Source: a virus. Taken from it: a DNA stretch of 45,034 nt. Numbering within the stretch: the stretch's first letter is position 1; each line of letters begins with the position of its first letter. The translations under genes and the position numbers were made by a program. The notes beneath the pieces are model-generated. The model was not told the DNA's origin. It made no database searches and saw nothing but the letters and a program-made list of their open reading frames with translations. The DNA lies in UHGV virus genome UHGV-0114729. One strand, written 5' to 3'. Shown in pieces: positions 10,610 to 42,150 of this stretch.

Positions 10610-10953
10610 GGTGCAAATGCCTGTTCAAACGTTGCGGTTACGGTTATCACTTTTACGTTTTTAACCACCTTTTTGAGCGTGTCAGCCTCGACACGCCACA
10701 GCGCGGTATCGCCGAAAGGCGGTGTGAAAATAAACGACTTCACTTTATGCCGCCGAAGGAAAGCGTGAATTTCATTCGCTGTAGTCGGATCCCCTGAAAA
10801 GGAATATTCATAGGTACGAATCTCATCATTCAGGCCGGAGCCGCTCACCTGTGCGTACCCGTCGCCGAACTGGACCTTCCTGACTGTGTCTTTGCTTCCC
10901 TCGGTGGGCTGGCTGGAAACCTTAATGCCCCAGGGGAATGTTTCTATCGTCAT
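10606..10953 (-). CDS. M: Minor tail protein M
   Basis: 115 aa; RKVQFGDGY motif as in lambda gpM; synteny. Confidence 0.85.
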   Translation of the reverse strand: MTIETFPWGIKVSSQPTEGSKDTVRKVQFGDGYAQVSGSGLNDEIRTYEYSFSGDPTTANEIHAFLRRHKVKSFIFTPPFGDTALWRVEADTLKKVVKNVKVITVTATFEQAFAP

Positions 10954-10958
10954 AACTG

Positions 10959-13475
10959 TTACCTGCGATTGGTCGCATTCCAGATAAGCCCACCGGGCTG
11001 GATTGCCCTGGCGATACCATCGTTGACAGATTTGTTAATCACCTGCTGATACGCCTTACCCAGCCTGTCTCCGTCGTTTTGCTGCTGTGCGTTACCGGAA
11101 GCATTCTCGACCGTCACCGGGGCATATACACTGACACCGAAAGGTGCTGCAGCCGGGCCTGTACCACCGCCCCCGACATACCCACCCGTGGCATACCCTT
11201 TCATCATCCGGTAAAGATTGCCGACGCCGATCCGGCTGGTAGCCTCTTTGGTGAAAACAAATTCACCACGGTGAACGACACCTGCAGGTTCATATTTCCC
11301 GCCTGAACCGGTATAACCGCCACCTGCAAATCCCAGCGCGGTTGTCGCTGAATCCACCAGGCCTACCATCGCCTGTTTCAGCAGGATCTGTGTCAGCATG
11401 GAGAGCGTGGAGCGGGTGAAGTCAGCCCAGTCAGCCTTTCCGCGCGTCAGCATGTCAGCCATATTTTGCCCGATGCCATCAAACGCACTGGTGGCAGCCG
11501 ACTTCATCTGGCCATAAGCATCTGAAGCGGAATCAACATAATCTGCCCATGCGGATTTGGCTCCGGACTGCCAGTCGTCCCGCAGCTTATCCTGCTCGGC
11601 GTAATACGCCTGCAGCGCCTGCAGCTCATTCTGATAACCAGCATCGTTCTCCGAACCACCACCATTTTTCCAGCCCTGAAGAAGCTGGGCCTCTTCATTG
11701 CGACGTTGTGCTGCACGACTGCTCATACCAGCACTTTCCGCAAGGGCTCGGGTTTTCTCGCCGATCTGCGTGACGTATTTTTGGGACGTATCCTGCAGGC
11801 GATTAAGCCGCTCCTGCGCCACTATCTGATCGCCGAGCTTCGCATTCAGCTCCGCACGGGAAAGCACCTCACTTTTACTGGCCAGCAGGGATTTTTCCTC
11901 AGCAGAAAGCGTTCGGGTCTTCGCGGCCTCTTCCAGAACCGTAAAGCGGGACTGCTGACGCCACAGCTCCTGACGCTGCTGGCTGATGGTGTCATTGATG
12001 CTCTTATGCTCCTGCAGGGTGCGCAGCTGTGTCTGTAGCTCCAGCGTCTGGGCACTGGCCGTATCGGTGGCACGGGCACCTGCGGGGGTTCTGATTGCCG
12101 GGGTCTTCTTCGGCTTTTTAAGGGTGTCTTCGTACTCTTTTTTCGCGGCAGCCAGGTTGATGTTGTAGTCAGCCTGGAGGATCCGCCCCTCTTTCAGCGC
12201 CTTGTTGAGCTCGCTCTGCCTGGCCGTGTATTTCTCAAGGGCAGTTTGGGTTTTGGCATAGTTGGCCTGAGCCTGCGCGGCATATTTCTGACGATCGGAC
12301 TCTGCGACCGCTTCACGGGAAGCATTCTCTTCGTTCGCTTTGGCAATACCAGCCTGCTGCTGCGCCATATCCAGTGCCAGTCTGGCCGTTTCACGATCAT
12401 TCCAGAACCGGGCGCGGGCCTCATCATTCACATAATGATCGCCTTTACGCAGATTCCAGATTTCATCAGCCTTTTTAAACGCGGCCTGGGCTTTTGCCAC
12501 CATCTCCTGGGCGGTGTCAGGTCTGCCAATATCAAGTGCAGCATCCCACATCGACTTGAAGGCACGCTTCAGGGAATCCGCTGAAGACTCAATCGTCCCC
12601 ATATTGTCGCGGATGGCCTTGGTCTGATCGTTGAATCCGGCAGTAGCAGCCTGATTAGCCGCCTGCAGTGCGCCAGCCTCATCACCGGCACGCTGCAGCT
12701 GTGCCACATGGGCAATCTGTTCGGCCGTAACATTGTGGAACTGCTGAGCCATCGCGATCAGGCCTGATGTCGGGTCAGTAGTGAGCTTGCCGTATGCGGC
12801 TGCGACTTTTTCCACCGGCACGCCGGAGGCATCAGTAAATCGCGCCACCGCCTGGCTCATTTCATCAAAGCGCGAACTCGCGCCCACCCCCGCGTTGATA
12901 AGCTCGCTCAGGGCTTCGCTGGTCTGATTGAACGTCAGCCCCGCTGCCTGGCCGTTTCGTGCCAGCGCCAACATACGATCGGCAGTCAATCCGGCCGTGT
13001 TCCCCGACAGTACCAGCGTTTTGTTGAAGTCAGATAGTGTGGATGAGCCCTGGTACCAGGCATAGAACAGCGCACCCGTTGCGGCGGACAGTGCACCGAT
13101 GCCGACCATCAACGGTGAGATCGTACCCAGTAAGGCCCGGAATGTTGGTATTATCCCGCCAAAGGAGTCCTTAACCTGACCGCCCTGCTGAAGCAGAATC
13201 AGCCATGGGTTCTGCCCGCCCGCTAGCTGCGTAGCTATATCGGTAAACTGCGCCGGAAGCATACGCATTGCTGCGTTATACTGGCCTATTGAAATACCCG
13301 CCTTGCGCGCGGCGTTCTCCTGGCGGCTAAAGGACTGCTGGATCCGTAGCGCTTCGTCGTTCGCCGCGCTGCCAGTCTGCTTTAATTCTTTTTTGACGTA
13401 GTTAAGCTGCTCGTTAAATTTCGTCGAGTTAACGTCAAGGTTAACGACCAGATCACCCACTGCCGTCTGGGCCAT
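10959..13475 (-). CDS. H: Tail tape measure protein H
   Basis: 838 aa, Ala/Gln-rich coiled-coil protein between G/T and M. Confidence 0.9.
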   Translation of the reverse strand: MAQTAVGDLVVNLDVNSTKFNEQLNYVKKELKQTGSAANDEALRIQQSFSRQENAARKAGISIGQYNAAMRMLPAQFTDIATQLAGGQNPWLILLQQGGQVKDSFGGIIPTFRALLGTISPLMVGIGALSAATGALFYAWYQGSSTLSDFNKTLVLSGNTAGLTADRMLALARNGQAAGLTFNQTSEALSELINAGVGASSRFDEMSQAVARFTDASGVPVEKVAAAYGKLTTDPTSGLIAMAQQFHNVTAEQIAHVAQLQRAGDEAGALQAANQAATAGFNDQTKAIRDNMGTIESSADSLKRAFKSMWDAALDIGRPDTAQEMVAKAQAAFKKADEIWNLRKGDHYVNDEARARFWNDRETARLALDMAQQQAGIAKANEENASREAVAESDRQKYAAQAQANYAKTQTALEKYTARQSELNKALKEGRILQADYNINLAAAKKEYEDTLKKPKKTPAIRTPAGARATDTASAQTLELQTQLRTLQEHKSINDTISQQRQELWRQQSRFTVLEEAAKTRTLSAEEKSLLASKSEVLSRAELNAKLGDQIVAQERLNRLQDTSQKYVTQIGEKTRALAESAGMSSRAAQRRNEEAQLLQGWKNGGGSENDAGYQNELQALQAYYAEQDKLRDDWQSGAKSAWADYVDSASDAYGQMKSAATSAFDGIGQNMADMLTRGKADWADFTRSTLSMLTQILLKQAMVGLVDSATTALGFAGGGYTGSGGKYEPAGVVHRGEFVFTKEATSRIGVGNLYRMMKGYATGGYVGGGGTGPAAAPFGVSVYAPVTVENASGNAQQQNDGDRLGKAYQQVINKSVNDGIARAIQPGGLIWNATNRR

Positions 13476-36637: not shown

Positions 36638-37315
36638 ATGGAAAATAAAGAAATCAGAAAAGCCAACCTGGAAGCGCTGTACGAGAAGCGTCAGCACGAG
36701 TCTGGAATGACCAAAGCGCAGTTTGCCGAGCTCATCGAGACAAGTCCGGCTGCGCTTAGCCAGCTACTGGGACCAAACCCTCATCGCAATATCGGCGATA
36801 AGATGGCTCGCAAAATTGAAACTGCGCTTGATCTGCCTTTTGGCTGGATGGATGTTTTACACGCCAGTGAAGAACCTTCGAACGTTGCATTTCGAGGACT
36901 GAACGAGACAAAAGGAAGTTATCCTGTAATCAGCTGGGTAAGCGCGGGGCAATGGATGGAAGCTGTAGAACCTTATCACCGAAGAGCGATAGATCGCTGG
37001 TATGACACGACTGTTGACTGCTCAGAAGATTCATTCTGGCTGGACGTTAAAGGGGATTCTATGACCTCCCCGGCTGGACTGAGCATACCCGAGGGAGCAG
37101 CGATACTTGTTGATCCTGAAGTCGAGCCGCGCAACGGAAAGCTGGTTGTCGCGAAGCTAGAAGGCGATAACGAAGCGACCTTTAAGAAGCTTGTAATCGA
37201 TGCCGGCAGACGCTTCCTAAAGCCCCTTAACCCCGCATATCCCATGCTAGAAATTAATGGAAACTGCAAAATCATCGGCGTTGTGGTTGATGCCAAAATA
37301 CTAAACATCCCATAA
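36638..37315 (+). CDS. cI: cI-type repressor (HTH plus LexA-like S24 peptidase domain)
   Basis: Start MENKEIRK at 36638; N-terminal HTH; C-terminal GDSM serine and downstream lysine typical of autocleaving repressors. Confidence 0.9.
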   Translation: MENKEIRKANLEALYEKRQHESGMTKAQFAELIETSPAALSQLLGPNPHRNIGDKMARKIETALDLPFGWMDVLHASEEPSNVAFRGLNETKGSYPVISWVSAGQWMEAVEPYHRRAIDRWYDTTVDCSEDSFWLDVKGDSMTSPAGLSIPEGAAILVDPEVEPRNGKLVVAKLEGDNEATFKKLVIDAGRRFLKPLNPAYPMLEINGNCKIIGVVVDAKILNIP

Positions 37316-37334
37316 CCTCACGCAAAACCCCTCA

Positions 37335-37360
37335 AGCCCGCCATCGCGCGGGCTTTTTTA
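37335..37360 (+). terminator. Rho-independent terminator after cI
   Basis: GCCCGC-CATCGC-GCGGGC followed by TTTTTT, 20 nt after the cI stop. Confidence 0.75.
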
Positions 37361-37399
37361 CGTCCCGAATTCCTTCGCTGTAAATTTTTAATCGCTTAT

Positions 37400-37473
37400 T
37401 AATCAATACGCTAAATAAAACCATTCAACAATTTAGCATTTTGCTATTGCGCATAATTTAGCATCACGCTAAA
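37400..37473. promoter_or_regulatory. OL operator cluster and candidate PL promoter
   Basis: Three copies of the operator family, including TTTAGC-ATCAC-GCTAAA at 37457..37473. Confidence 0.6.
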
Positions 37474-37891
37474 TTTACCCCATCGAAACGAAACATCGAC
37501 AGCTGAGCGAAGTTAGCCAGCGGCGGACAGCAAGTCGCCTGCTTTTTAACAACATGCAGATTTACAGCGTCAATGACCTGTTAAGACCCCTACACGTAAA
37601 CGTGCTGTATCACCGGGTGCGATCCGGTCGGTGAGAGAGTATCCCCGCGCGAGAGCGAGAACGGCGTGAGAACGGGCAACACTGGCAGGGAGTTGGCGCT
37701 GACCAATACAGGGAATGTTATGGGCTGTGGTGAAGGGTTCATGGACGGGAATATGTCGCACGTAAAGCGGCGAGGCCCGAGGAGCTATTGCCGAAGATAA
37801 GTAGGCCGAATCGGGTCGAAATGGGTCTCCCACCTACCACATCGCCAAAGCATTTCTCCCGCATCAGCGGGTAACGACAGAGGGTAAGTCA

Positions 37892-38560
37892 ATGATTCGT
37901 CTTAACAACGAAATTAAAAATCAGCTATGCCATAACCTGCTTCTCGCATCCCCATTGTTTGAGAAAGCGAAAGCTGCGGTTAATGAGAGGGCGAAAATTG
38001 TTGAAGAAATTCGACAGGCATTGCTCAAGCAGGAAAACACTAGCGATGAGCAAATAACTAAGGCTCGGGAAGATTTCAAAGATAACTCCTTCATCAAGAT
38101 GCAGGTCGGCGCTAAAACTGCAATTTTAAAGGTCATTATTAATGGTGAGTATCACGAATTAGCCAGGAACGGTTTGGATCATCGCTATCGCCACCGTGGA
38201 AAACATATTGGTAAGCACGATCTTGAAAGCGACCTGTTCTTCGGAGCTTCCTTCGCGCCTGTAATTGATTCGGGTTTCGTTCCTGAAAGTTACAGCACGC
38301 TGAAGAAAGTTGGAAAATTACACGACCGACTCACTGAATCGACGGTAACCATCAACGTTCTTTACGATGAAGTTGATGCCTTCCAATTGCAGGTTAAAGG
38401 TGCTCTAACCAAAGTCTCAACTGTTAAAAAACTGGCTGAGATGTGGCCTGATGCAGTGCCATATTTGCCTGAGGTGGAACGCCGTGAAGCGACCAGCACC
38501 GCACTTGCCATTCCCGTTGAAACGCTAAACGCCCTTTGCGGCATACCAAAGAATGAATGA
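37892..38560 (+). CDS. Hypothetical protein, first gene downstream of PL (AT-rich cargo)
   Basis: 222-aa ORF with GAGGG RBS; lower GC than neighbours; followed at once by a strong terminator; contains overlapping RNGLDH and RHRGKH motifs. Confidence 0.6.
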   Translation: MIRLNNEIKNQLCHNLLLASPLFEKAKAAVNERAKIVEEIRQALLKQENTSDEQITKAREDFKDNSFIKMQVGAKTAILKVIINGEYHELARNGLDHRYRHRGKHIGKHDLESDLFFGASFAPVIDSGFVPESYSTLKKVGKLHDRLTESTVTINVLYDEVDAFQLQVKGALTKVSTVKKLAEMWPDAVPYLPEVERREATSTALAIPVETLNALCGIPKNE

Positions 38561-38562
38561 CC

Positions 38563-38582
38563 CGCTCCGGCGGGTTTTTTAT
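38563..38582 (+). terminator. Rho-independent terminator after the 222-aa gene
   Basis: CCCGC-TCCG-GCGGG followed by TTTTTTATC. Confidence 0.8.
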
Positions 38583-38721
38583 CGGCCATACATAGGCAGA
38601 TTTTCGAGTCTGCCCATTTATGACAACCGGCGGCCATCCACCGCCCATTGAAACACTGAATAAATGCGTTGAAGTCTTGTATTAACCGTTCCGTTCGCCG
38701 CGATAAGGCCAAGAGGAAATC

Positions 38722-39101: not shown

Positions 39102-39240
39102 CGTAAAACCCGCGCAAGGCGGGATCTACGTCCGGTGGTACCGACCAAAGTTACACCGGAAACAACATTAAAACCAAAGTTAACCCAATGGGCGCTATCA
39201 ATGGTCCGGGGATTCTAACACCCAAAAAAGAGGATCTCAC

Positions 39241-42150
39241 ATGGAATTTTTCCATCTGATAAAAGCCAGTCAGAAGTCTGGTAAGAAAGATGCAGTGATT
39301 TGGTTCACTGCGAAAAGTGTAGCGCGCGCCAATCTCCAACTCGATGTGGCACTGGAAGAAGCCGGAATTGAAGAAACTGGCCGCGGTAAAGATTATGCCA
39401 AACCAATCCGCACCGATTTCCCGGTATATGACGACCTGCCGGAAGAAGGCGCAGTGGATTACACCTGGTGCGAACGCTACGAACTGCAGAACGATGACCG
39501 CACCTGGCTGCCAAAAGTCACAGCTGAAAACTCTGACGAGAAAACGGCTCAGACCGTTGATAGTCACATAACTACTGAGTCAACGCTGCCAGAAACCGCT
39601 GGCATCACGCTGGACGAACACGACGACGACTCAACCCTCTACCCGGTAGTGCAGATGCCGTTTCGTAAGCAACTGCTTTCCCAGTTCACCGCCGACGAAC
39701 TGCGCCACCACGTAACCCACGAAGAGTACGAAGCTATCGGCGCGCTGGAGATGGACACTGATAACAGTTACGTCCAGAACTTGCTGTTAGCTGCTGAGAA
39801 CTGCCCGGAAGTGAAGGGTTACGACACCAAAGACCTGTGGCGCTACACCGATGCCATTCGCAAAGTGTTCAGCCAGGACAAGCGTCACGAACTCGCGCTG
39901 GTACTCCGTTTCACCAGAATGTGGGCGGCGACTGATTACATTGACCGTGGCATCCTGGCGCGTGAATGGGCCGCCGGTAATCGCATCAGTAGTGTGCAGC
40001 GTACTGATTCCGGCACTAATGCCGACGGCGGTTACGTCACTGACCGTGGACCTGACGCACACCACACACTGGACACTCTCGATTTAGAGATTGCGTGTGC
40101 CCTTCTGCCTATGGACTTCAACCACTTCGAGATCCCGGGCAGCATTCTTCGTCGCGCTAAAGAAATCGTGACCAAAAAAGAAGAACCATGGAAATCATGG
40201 AGCAACATCCTGCGCAATCAGCCAGGCGTTCTGGGTGTTAACCGCACGGCTATTTTTAACCTGGTACGTATCGCACCGGAAAATATTCATTTAACTCCTG
40301 TCGCTCACCTGGAATTTGTTAACCAGACCATGACAGCCGCGTTCAATTCCGCGGTCGAGTTATTGCCGTTGCATGAGGCTGAACCCGCAACACAGGAAAT
40401 TCCCCAACCTGAAGGTAAGGAGTCTCCGCGCAAATCCTTCTGCACTCACGAAGAGAACCTGCAACGCGTGCGTGAAGAAGGAGCACGCCGCCGCGCAGAG
40501 GAAGCGGCAGCACAACAGCAGAAAGTCGAACAAGAACTGGTTAAAAATGTCGGCAACGGAATATTCGACGTTACGGCTTTGCTGCAGAACTCAGCAACTC
40601 ATGGCACGAAAAAGGCTACGGAGACCACCAGCAATGTGCAGGTTCAAGAAACTGTCAGTGATGAAAAACAAGCTGGTGATGAAGTACAGCTAGGCGAAAG
40701 CAGTCTGGAGTCTGGTGAAGAGTCACATCCCGGCCAGAAGGACGATGTAAACCAGAATACGGATTCTGTCGCCAAAAATAGCGATTCTGTAAGCCAAACC
40801 GAACCAGTTGCAGCACAAACCGAGCCAGAAGCGCAATCTGACGAACCAGCTGTTGTTTATCCCGCTTATTTCGAGCCAGGCCGCTATGAAGGGCTGCCAA
40901 ACGAGGTTTACCACGCCGCCAACGGCATCAGCTCAACCCAGGTGAAAGATGCGCGCGTTTCGCTGATGTACTTCAATGCGCGCCACGTAGAGAAAACCAT
41001 CGTCAAAGAGCGCTCAGCGGTGCTGGACATGGGCAACTTGGTGCATGCGCTGGCGTTGCAGCCTGAACTACTGGACGCAGAATTCAGCGTTGAACCGGTG
41101 ATCCCTGAAGGCGCATTCACAACGGCCGCGACCCTGCGCGCCTTTATCGATGAGCACAATGCCAGCCTGCCGGCGCTGCTGTCTGCCGACGACATCAAGG
41201 TGTTACTGGAAGAGTACAACGCCACCCTGCCGCCGCAGGTTCCGCTTGGCGCTAACCTGGAAGAAACGGCACAGAACTATATGGCGCTGCCAGCTGACTT
41301 CCAGCGTATTGATGGTGACCAGAAGCAGACGGCGACGGCAATGAAGGCATGCATTAAAGAGTACAACGCCACCCTGCCGCCGCCGGTTAAAACCAGCGGC
41401 AGCCGTGACGCGCTGCTGGAGCAGTTGGCAATCATCAACCCTGACCTTGTGGCTCAGGAAGCACAGAAACCGGCACCACTGAAAGTGTCCGGTACCAAAG
41501 CAGACATGATCCAGGCCGTGAAGGCAGTCAAACCAGATGCCGTATTTGCCGACGAACTGCTGGATGCCTGGCGCGATAACCCGGAAGGAAAAGTGCTGGT
41601 CACCCGCCAGCAGCTGAGCACCGCGCTGAATATTCAAAAAGCGCTTCTGGCACACCCGACCGCCGGCATGCTGCTGACCCACCCTAGCCGAGCCGTTGAG
41701 GTGAGCTACTTTGGTTTTGACGAGGAGACGGGCTTGGAAGTTCGTGTGCGCCCTGACCTTGAGATCGACCTGGATGGCGTGCGTATAGGTGCAGACCTGA
41801 AAACCATCAGCATGTGGAATGTTAAGCAGGAAAGCCTGCGCGCCAGGCTACACCGGGAAATTATTGAACGTGATTATCACCTGAGCGCGGCTATGTACTG
41901 CGAAACCGCAGCGCTGGATCAGTTCTTCTGGATTTTCGTCAACAAAGACGAGAACTACCACTGGATCGCCATCATCGAGGCATCCGCTGAACTACTGGAG
42001 CTGGGTATGCTCGAGTACCGCAAAGCGATGCGCAATATCGCAACCGGATTCGACACAGGTGAATGGCCAGCGCCAATCACTGCTGACTACACCGACGAAC
42101 TGAACGACTTCGACCTGCGCCGCCTTGAAGCGCTGCGTACTCAGGCATAA
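39241..42150 (+). CDS. recE: RecE-like exonuclease VIII (C-terminal PD-(D/E)XK nuclease domain)
   Basis: 969 aa; C-terminal YHAANGISSTQ...NLVHALA...YFGFDEETGLEVRVRPDL...GADLKT matches the RecE-type nuclease fold; followed by an annealase gene. Confidence 0.75.
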   Translation: MEFFHLIKASQKSGKKDAVIWFTAKSVARANLQLDVALEEAGIEETGRGKDYAKPIRTDFPVYDDLPEEGAVDYTWCERYELQNDDRTWLPKVTAENSDEKTAQTVDSHITTESTLPETAGITLDEHDDDSTLYPVVQMPFRKQLLSQFTADELRHHVTHEEYEAIGALEMDTDNSYVQNLLLAAENCPEVKGYDTKDLWRYTDAIRKVFSQDKRHELALVLRFTRMWAATDYIDRGILAREWAAGNRISSVQRTDSGTNADGGYVTDRGPDAHHTLDTLDLEIACALLPMDFNHFEIPGSILRRAKEIVTKKEEPWKSWSNILRNQPGVLGVNRTAIFNLVRIAPENIHLTPVAHLEFVNQTMTAAFNSAVELLPLHEAEPATQEIPQPEGKESPRKSFCTHEENLQRVREEGARRRAEEAAAQQQKVEQELVKNVGNGIFDVTALLQNSATHGTKKATETTSNVQVQETVSDEKQAGDEVQLGESSLESGEESHPGQKDDVNQNTDSVAKNSDSVSQTEPVAAQTEPEAQSDEPAVVYPAYFEPGRYEGLPNEVYHAANGISSTQVKDARVSLMYFNARHVEKTIVKERSAVLDMGNLVHALALQPELLDAEFSVEPVIPEGAFTTAATLRAFIDEHNASLPALLSADDIKVLLEEYNATLPPQVPLGANLEETAQNYMALPADFQRIDGDQKQTATAMKACIKEYNATLPPPVKTSGSRDALLEQLAIINPDLVAQEAQKPAPLKVSGTKADMIQAVKAVKPDAVFADELLDAWRDNPEGKVLVTRQQLSTALNIQKALLAHPTAGMLLTHPSRAVEVSYFGFDEETGLEVRVRPDLEIDLDGVRIGADLKTISMWNVKQESLRARLHREIIERDYHLSAAMYCETAALDQFFWIFVNKDENYHWIAIIEASAELLELGMLEYRKAMRNIATGFDTGEWPAPITADYTDELNDFDLRRLEALRTQA

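Follow-up and report, generated by a model that had tools for sequence, protein, structure and literature searches.

The window analysed here is the whole 45,034-nt stretch of the virus genome UHGV-0114729, a lambdoid, Rac/phi80-like Escherichia coli prophage, and the region in question (37480-38582) comprises the leader of its early-left (PL) transcript and the first gene after it. The leader contains a conserved RNA of 133 nt, designated domain A, which follows a boxA of the type known from ribosomal RNA (rrn) operons and occupies the place where N-type phages have boxB with its bound antiterminator protein N. With moderate confidence, the region is regarded as a phi80-type PL leader with an antitermination RNA made of boxA and domain A, followed by an exchangeable cargo gene coding for a protein of the Nmad5 family. 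The original prediction, made from the letters alone, had described a structured GC-rich leader without N, an AT-rich 222-aa gene, and a strong terminator; every element described there was found at its assigned position or a few bases from it.

Conserved RNA in the PL leader

Domain A belongs to no family in Rfam 15, which was run over the leader in two passes; on 37500-37900 it gave chance-level matches only, namely bxd_1 with 19 bits (gathering threshold 75) and Pseudomon-groES with 12.8 bits (gathering threshold 50). Members were collected from IMG/VR, where a 17-mer taken from the block was matched in at least 120 stretches. A scan of genome contigs, about two thirds of whose matches were due to chance and were discarded, added Enterobacter, Citrobacter, Kluyvera, Providencia, and Xenorhabdus to the members from Escherichia and a Klebsiella phage, and more divergent lineages of lower G+C content were obtained by a gapped pattern search. 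The structure model was computed with RNAalifold on the first alignment, refined by hand, and converted to covariance model R1, with which the members were realigned. As suggested in the original prediction, the leader was thus searched for RNA structure and covariance, and a conserved, covarying RNA was found at 37567-37699. R1 scores 174 bits at 37562-37705, and this is its only match in the window with filters off.

In alignment A6 (77 sequences, 70 of them distinct), 98% of cells are paired. In alignment A8, composed of 32 distinct diverse sequences, the value is 95.8%, as against 29-42% when the partners are slid. Changes on both sides were found in A8 in 19 of the 32 pairs, including those of helix P5 (6/6), helix P1 (5/6), and the inner part of P6 (3/3). 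None of 500 shuffles matched the observed alignment on four of five measures, and 43 of 500 did so on the measure of further pair types. For domain A, the minimum free energy corresponds to z = −2.85 (+ strand) and z = +0.50 (− strand); the fold energy of the whole leader is unexceptional (z = −1.0).

Several candidate alignments and pairings were discarded on the way to this model. In the MAFFT alignment A4, which included the boxA spacer, P1 was misaligned, and A5 and the model-based A6 and A8 were used instead. The proximal P5 hairpin proposed by RNAalifold was replaced by a distal helix, the sole survivor in loci L297 and L313. The minimum-energy pairing of CACG with a distal CGUG was rejected, as there is no such partner in Providencia. 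Within 37610-37634, the 5' strand of P5 can pair with either a proximal CCGGU or a distal CGGUGA, and most lineages keep both; these alternative pairings may represent a folding intermediate or a switch. AACAG (37563-67) may likewise compete with P2 for CUGUU.

The boxA of the window differs from the rrn boxA at one position, and in PA2-type phages the rrn match is exact. One such match is the chance expectation in 45 kb; the linkage to domain A is given by the relatives, as in 55 of 57 distinct contexts domain A is preceded, at a distance of 11-14 nt, by a boxA with two substitutions at most. Directly 5' of boxA is a hairpin (37522-37539), scored as a weak terminator-like site in the terminator scan, and a hairpin of other sequence stands at the same spot in relatives (alignments judged by eye). 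The terminator hairpin with a T-run that had been predicted at 37518-37548 is therefore real as a hairpin, but its T-run is boxA and not a conserved terminator. Neither a second boxA nor a second hairpin of this kind was found within the window.

Domain A in place of the N gene

The absence of N that had been noted in the original prediction was borne out by a scan of open reading frames (ORFs), by Pfam, by PHROGs, and by tblastn. The ORFs after PL have no arginine-rich motif, none of the tested ORFs belongs to an N family in Pfam or PHROGs, and tblastn of the 45-kb window with lambda N, HK97/P22-type N, and PF25694 N gave only spurious matches to the non-coding leader, which arise because the N annotation in phage phi419 is over-extended. 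In phi419 (L011 1521-2021), the coding sequence named anti-termination protein N-like starts 39 codons too early, inside the non-coding hairpin of the N leader. This annotation, as at least one of its kind running into the leader hairpin, and the name N given in phi80 look wrong.

Domain A is single-copy per locus, with 77 matches in 80 sources; the three sources without it are HK97, phi419, and a partial contig. A second copy on the PR side was found neither in the window nor in the PR operon of phi80. In Providencia and Xenorhabdus, the RNA lies about 150-240 nt downstream of a cI-like repressor gene with helix-turn-helix (HTH) and S24 domains and on the same strand, which is the PL position. 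Among loci that share the hairpin of the N leader described below, an arginine-rich N is present in none of the 16 with domain A and is the first gene in at least 86 of the 96 without it. The 16 begin with the phi80 'N' (seven loci) or with Nmad5 (two), or have no gene called within about 120 nt (seven, all PA2-type); in PA2, the leader hairpin is followed by a terminator and then by a Rha-family gene. No N was detected by tblastn in any of the RNA-bearing loci. Because the loci are split by domain A in this way, boxA with domain A and boxA with boxB and N are alternatives at one genomic position. Phage HK639 has the same approximately 47 nt directly after its putative pL and then diverges into an antiterminator RNA annotated in GenBank as putL-like, which is visible as an apparent third alternative at this position.

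Clustering of the ORFs that start no more than 1 kb after the RNA gave 142 unrelated groups in 110 loci. No gene is consistently linked to the RNA, and any partner is therefore more likely to be among the host Nus factors or RNA polymerase. In three loci (L063, L117, and L142; two from IMG/VR and one Providencia prophage), the first cargo after domain A has a RelA/SpoT-like motif (...TGYRGIHR...) recognized by eye, and these proteins may be small alarmone-synthetase toxins.

Mosaic leader and its long hairpin

The untranslated leader after PL is 414 nt long (37475-37888), contains no credible gene, and is 99.5% identical to the leader between pL and 'N' of phi80. Its G+C content of 0.575-0.59 (37500-37800) is higher than the 0.40-0.47 of the flanks, in agreement with the approximately 340 nt of GC-rich sequence without a credible ORF that had been predicted. 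The ORFs listed in it are one of 44 aa on the + strand and those of 87, 50, 41, and 35 aa on the − strand. A coding leader was rejected, as the ORFs are not kept across mosaic breakpoints in relatives: the breakpoints at 37689-37727 interrupt them, and a short ORF within 37741-37800 meets an early stop here and continues in HK97. The entire leader (37475-37888) also occurs, at 99.5% identity and without annotation, in the cloning strains DH5alpha, DH10B, TOP10, and NEB 5-alpha, presumably via phi80dlacZ.

Comparison with phages in BLAST divided the leader into three blocks with separate histories. The first (37540-37727), with boxA and domain A, is common to PA2, TL-2011c, the O104:H4 Shiga toxin 2 (Stx2) phages phiON-2011 and P13363, HK225, and KO-TP1. 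The second (37721-37850) is shared with HK97, HK106, and 933W-type phages. The third (37845-37888), containing the linker before the first gene, is common to HK639 and CobraSix; HK225 has parts of it at two additional sites, immediately before gp39 and gp38.

The long hairpin of the second block, designated block B, is a module of known kind, an allele of the lambda N-leader hairpin by its sequence, and may be cleaved by RNase III. Block B shares about 91% identity with the sequence that immediately precedes N in HK97- and 933W-type phages; in HK97, the P22-type boxB (GCGCTGACAAAGCGC) comes before it and the N start codon after it. In IMG/VR loci, the block stands directly before lambda-type N (MDAQTRRRERRAEK...), HK97/P22-type N (MTRRTQFKGNSRSRRRER...), or other arginine-rich N genes, and is flanked by CUUUGGGGUGUGG ... 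CCACACCACCAAAG. These flanks we take to be the strands that close the RNase III-sensitive N-leader hairpin of lambda, the first of them containing boxC. The same flanking strands are present in the window, with a boxC-side strand and CCACA..CCAAAG forming a stem between nut and the ribosome-binding site of the first gene, as in lambda; the closing stem is long and has covarying basal pairs in RNAalifold. The difference from lambda is that the hairpin here precedes a gene other than N, and its interior presumably also differs from the lambda sequence.

Proposed antitermination and other explanations

The anatomy of the leader is consistent with the following mechanism. The repressor-controlled PL transcript carries, in this order, the hairpin with rrn-type boxA, 11 nt of spacer, domain A, the N-leader hairpin allele, the linker hairpin with the ribosome-binding site, and Nmad5 with its terminator. 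boxA would recruit NusB/NusE and other Nus factors, as in rrn operons. Domain A, standing at the boxB/N place of N-type phages and at the putL place of HK639, would stay on the elongating polymerase and render it termination-resistant without an N protein, and transcription from PL would thereby continue through the terminator at 38559-38582 into kil, recET, and int. Domain A would thus act on termination and need host factors only. Its antitermination role, to which the position, the linkage with boxA, the exclusion of N, and the shared putL position point, is given about an even chance.

The strong terminator that had been predicted after the 222-aa gene is confirmed at 38559-38582 as a 7-bp stem with a T-run. 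In distinct contexts of the RNA, a strict search placed an intrinsic terminator on the sense strand within 1.5 kb downstream in 78 of 96 cases (median distance 466 nt), and the rate per 3 kb was 1.02 on the sense strand versus 0.45 on the antisense strand. No promoter of their own was detected for kil, ydaE, recE, recT, and int in a scan that was insensitive and missed even PL. Because none was detected, read-through of 38559-38582 is plausibly needed; the need of recET and int for antitermination, as originally proposed, is to this extent plausible, but limited by the scan.

Several points weigh against the antitermination reading. There is no second copy in the PR operon, unlike the pairs nutL/nutR and putL/putR. 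The promoter scan lacks the sensitivity to rule out promoters further inside the operon, downstream. The complex of boxA and Nus factors alone is established mainly against Rho-dependent termination, and the terminator at 38559-38582 is intrinsic. The role is drawn from position and co-occurrence only. Alignment A8 was fitted to the model and the lineages are few; P2 and most of P3 are invariant, so covariation neither confirms nor refutes them. As the loci are related and mosaic, the covariation counts and the contrast of 0/16 with 86/96 overstate the number of independent events. Finally, phi80 work of 1985 reportedly named the 98-aa protein 'N' and mapped nutL, which may show a dependence on protein.

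A leader that does not act on downstream terminators is rather unlikely, yet it accounts for part of the anatomy. boxA and Nus factors would shield the leader from Rho, and domain A and the long hairpin would set stability, processing by RNase III, or translation of the first gene, or domain A would be released as a trans-acting or decoy RNA. Block B, as an allele of the lambda N-leader hairpin, fits this well, since the lambda hairpin is an RNase III site that tunes translation of N; an untranslated leader of 414 nt is an obvious target of Rho, each phage has only one copy, and the alternative pairings (P5; AACAG/CUGUU) could act as a switch. Translational control of a particular gene is unlikely, however, because the first gene is hypervariable and, in PA2, is cut off from the RNA by a terminator. 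The constant distance from boxA, the exclusion of boxB with N, and the position shared with putL point to the elongation complex instead.

It is unlikely that domain A is a large nutL for a protein antiterminator, either the 98-aa 'N' of phi80 or another phage factor. The gene would have been replaced by Nmad5, leaving an orphan site, and PL transcription would stop at 38582 or the factor would be encoded elsewhere. Earlier annotation agrees with such a site: GenBank entry M11919 (1985) has a 278-nt "nutL regulatory signal" adjoining the "N protein" that corresponds to 37503-37780 of the window and spans the hairpin, boxA, and domain A, and JX871397 also annotates the stretch as nutL and the next phi80 gene as N. 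Furthermore, 12 of 13 locus entries with a homologue of phi80 'N' also have domain A, including a 65%-identical copy in Xenorhabdus (L148). Nevertheless, a phi80-'N' homologue is found in just 12 of 139 domain-A locus entries (three of them phi80 itself), and the other 127 lack it in the fetched flanks. The phi80 protein (L001 3418-3714) lacks an arginine-rich motif, is not similar to lambda N, and belongs only to a PHROG of unknown function. In locus L202, a homologue (10784-11080) lies about 1 kb downstream of a genuine arginine-rich N, and this locus is without domain A. The name 'N' is probably historical rather than functional. No other gene is consistently tied to the RNA, and compensatory changes would not be maintained in different genera at a site that had been orphaned.

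A decaying or defective prophage is improbable. In that case, the leader would be inherited from a phi80-like phage, the Nmad5 cassette and its terminator would insulate the left operon, and there would be no selection in this host. Recent exchange alone can make blocks of lambdoid mosaics near-identical, and there is a frameshifted gene just downstream. On the other hand, compensatory changes keep the RNA structure in distant genera, the genes for integration (int), recET, replication, Q, and lysis are retained, and 37300-38650 is matched at 100% in the chromosomes of three unrelated E. coli and at 99.9% in a fourth.

Nmad5 gene and cargo slot

The 222-aa gene was confirmed at 37892-38560, with the low G+C content (0.41-0.465) noted originally. 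Its product matches the Nmad5 family (PF18757) with 102.8 bits (cut-off 27; E = 3e-29), residues 2-219 covering positions 1-206 of the 206 of the profile; it belongs to phrog_1965 (unknown function) and is named Nmad5 family protein by the Prokaryotic Genome Annotation Pipeline (PGAP). An exhaustive search for homologues gave 118 cluster representatives, most of them some 180-250 aa long and apparently made of one domain. The residues that do not vary in the family, G94, W185, P186, P193, and N213, are all present. Of the two motifs pointed out originally, R-N-G-L-D-H holds the invariant G94 and no other invariant residue, and R-H-R-G-K-H lies outside the conserved columns, in a block of lower confidence in the model. 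The AlphaFold2 model (predicted local distance difference test score 86) combines a long helical hairpin with a small sheet and matches the models of other phage Nmad5 proteins. Foldseek against PDB gave no informative match and none to a known regulator, and no PADLOC model matches the protein. Taken together, the homologue searches, the model, Foldseek on PDB and BFVD, PADLOC, and NCBIfam yielded nothing beyond further Nmad5 proteins and generic coiled coils. Homology is therefore clear at the level of the family, but the relation to a known early gene, which the original prediction had raised, goes no further, as the function of the family is unknown.

The family is named from neighbourhoods with nucleotide-modification genes. 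The protein of the window resembles it in the full-length match to the hidden Markov model, the invariant residues, and the predicted fold, but modification genes are missing from its surroundings (repressor, kil, ydaE, and recE), and the gene is here the first of the PL operon. The label of nucleotide modification is without contextual support here.

The ATG of Nmad5 lies exactly where the phi80 98-aa 'N' starts, and homology to phi80 resumes at 38600-38650, after the own cargo and terminator of each phage. This element is 84% identical to phi80, about 75% to HK225 over a longer stretch, and 100% to KO-TP1 over the last approximately 30 nt; by sequence, it looks like the right-hand recombination boundary of a cargo slot. 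The 222-aa protein is an accessory early cargo in this recombination-bounded slot and no part of the antitermination device. The insulated cargo considered in the original prediction fits such an exchangeable cassette that carries a terminator of its own. Of more than 110 loci, only 2-3 have Nmad5 after domain A. An 80%-identical homologue belongs to a lambdoid phage (locus L187), in which cI is followed by N (PF25694), two small genes, Nmad5, one gene, and kil, and a 49%-identical homologue adjoins a large protein with phage-tail Pfam domains. In a Dhillonvirus, nmad5 is reported to be non-essential, to lie near the capsid gene, and to have seemed toxic in cloning attempts, and phages with a point mutation in this gene escape the Tmn defence (PMC11846954).

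The other original proposal, that the protein is a novel regulator, is thereby made unlikely. As an antiterminator or regulator replacing N, it is very improbable: the start position of phi80 'N' directly after the leader would suit it, but it is not a substitute of N because the slot holds many unrelated genes and the close homologue coexists with a true N, and the homologue beside the tail-domain protein, the properties of nmad5 in Dhillonvirus, the rarity after domain A, and the fold all speak against it.

Comparison with known systems

The N/nut system of lambda is similar in its place just after PL, in boxA, in the long hairpin of the N leader (shared by HK97-, 933W-, and lambda-type phages), and in downstream intrinsic terminators. 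The window differs from it in lacking an arginine-rich N and in having an RNA of 133 nt and six helices in place of the 15-nt boxB hairpin; HK97 has GCGCTGACAAAGCGC at the equivalent place after boxA. The boxA is here of the strong rrn consensus type, with a hairpin in front of it, and a second site resembling nutR is absent, as neither boxA nor domain A occurs twice.

The put RNAs of HK022 and the putL-like RNA of HK639, which are antiterminators acting in cis and independently of protein, are also promoter-proximal in the PL transcript of phages without N, and HK639 shares the first approximately 47 nt and the position. put is about 70 nt long, with two stems and with copies putL and putR (PMC9378689). 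The RNA of the window is, on the contrary, single-copy, multi-branched, and always attached to boxA. There is no similarity in sequence or structure: R1 gave no match to the pL region of HK639 that holds the annotated putL-like RNA, in a comparison that covered HK639 only. Of the put-like cis-acting leader RNA proposed originally, a conserved structured RNA at the nutL/putL place has thus been found, but not homology with put or a copy on the PR side.

The rrn leader (boxB hairpin, boxA, boxC; NusA/B/E/G, SuhB, S4) is similar in the order of a hairpin, a consensus boxA, and a GU-rich boxC-like stretch, boxC being assigned by resemblance. The Xenorhabdus and Providencia versions reproduce what we take to be the rrn 17-mer TGCTCTTTAACAATTTA. 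In rrn operons, no phage protein is needed. They have no counterpart of domain A, however, and the present element belongs to a repressor-controlled early operon of a phage. Literature on the Pas small RNA, mEpimmI, and the Stx regulatory region was considered and has no bearing on this element.

It is proposed tentatively, as somewhat less than an even prospect, that boxA with domain A is a third early antitermination device of lambdoid phages beside N/nut and put, single-copy, cis-acting, recruiting host Nus factors through a consensus boxA, and requiring no phage protein, and that it is used by phi80, the Oslovirus-type Stx phages TL-2011c and PA2, the O104:H4 Stx2 phages phiON-2011 and P13363, and prophages from Escherichia to Xenorhabdus and Providencia. 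How lambdoid phages without N read through early terminators is a question that the put RNAs answer for a few of them. If true, the proposal would give an answer for phi80, a classic laboratory phage, and for N-less Shiga-toxin phages, whose early expression controls induction and toxin release. A hybrid of a strong rrn-type boxA and a dedicated RNA domain would also indicate how much of the work of N can be done by RNA in the Nus complex. The RNA of boxA and domain A is about 160 nt long, directly testable, and already present in common cloning strains.

Prophage setting and other features

According to the PGAP annotation of one matching genome, a Q-like antiterminator, nin, replication genes, a YdaT/cII-like gene, and a cro-like gene are coded leftward on the − strand. 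Coded rightward on the + strand are a LexA-family repressor (cI), the Nmad5-family gene, kil, ydaE, a frameshifted gene, recE, recT, and DUF4060, followed by the integrase on the − strand. From this gene order, PL reads rightward on the + strand. The PL promoter is assigned by its sequence; its −10 hexamer is the pL −10 annotated in phi80 (JX871397, L001 2996-3001). The features of the region are given in Table 1.

Table 1. Features of the PL region, with positions counted from the first letter of the window.
Feature	Position	Strand	Description
cI repressor gene	36638-37315	+	Peptidase_S24 and HTH_3 domains
Intrinsic terminator of the cI transcript	37334..37355	+	AAGCCCGCCATCGCGCGGGCTT then TTTTTT; 8 pairs, 6 G-C
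Putative PL promoter	37448..37475	+	−35 TTGCGC 37448-37453, −10 TAAATT 37470-37475; overlaps OL operators (TTTAGCATCACGCTAAA)
First ~47 nt of the PL transcript	37480..37527	+	Common to phi80 and HK639
Hairpin directly 5' of boxA	37522..37539	+	GGCGGACAGCAAGTCGCC, then TGCTTTTTAA; 5-bp stem, 8-nt loop; position of rrn boxB
boxA	37540..37552	+	TGCTTTTTAACAA; one mismatch from rrn boxA TGCTCTTTAACAA; annotated nutL boxA in phi80
Domain A	37567..37699	+	Conserved multi-helix RNA, 133 nt; covariance model R1, covariation
P1	37567-72 with 37694-99	+	Closing helix
P2	37578-82 with 37684-88	+	Never varies
P3	37588-90 with 37674-76	+	Mostly invariant
P4 hairpin	37593-37604	+	Annotated "nutL core" of phi80
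P5	37610-15 with 37629-34	+	Encloses 13-nt conserved loop
P6	37645-50 with 37655-64	+	GAGA tetraloop
N-leader long hairpin (block B)	37715..37853	+	~20-bp closing stem, 37715-37736 with 37833-37853
boxC-like stretch	37722-37732	+	GGGCUGUGGUG; 5' side of block B stem; boxC by resemblance only
Linker	37858..37884	+	Hairpin CCCGCAUCAGCGGG 37858-37871 and Shine-Dalgarno GAGGG 37880-37884; left slot boundary
Nmad5-family gene	37892..38560	+	222 aa; PF18757; accessory cargo
Intrinsic terminator over the Nmad5 stop codon	38559..38582	+	GACCCGCTCCGGCGGGTT + TTTTTTAT; 7 pairs, 5 G-C; 4-nt loop
Conserved ~50-nt element	38600..38650	+	Hairpin GGCGGCCAUCCACCGCC / GGCGGCCATCCACCGCC; apparent right slot boundary

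In PA2 (L002 330-2749) and TL-2011c (L006 1-1750), a type II restriction-modification pair lies between cI and PL, upstream of the leader with boxA and domain A. The pair consists of a BsuBI restriction enzyme and a methylase for which the annotation is PstI in PA2 and BsuBI in TL-2011c.

Downstream of the cargo slot, 39103-39199 on the − strand has a weak isrB-like match in Rfam (28.6 bits, gathering threshold 35; E = 0.025), bracketed on this strand by a promoter-like site (39240-39212) and a terminator-like hairpin (39123-39109). It could be a small RNA of about 95 nt between ydaE and recE. The frameshifted gene between the same two genes is, according to PGAP, a pseudogene of a DNA breaking-rejoining protein (39142-39493; L004 13843-14194). 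In strain W619, the annotated RecE coding sequence has 3390 nt and is thus longer than the recE ORF listed here (39241-42150, 969 aa).

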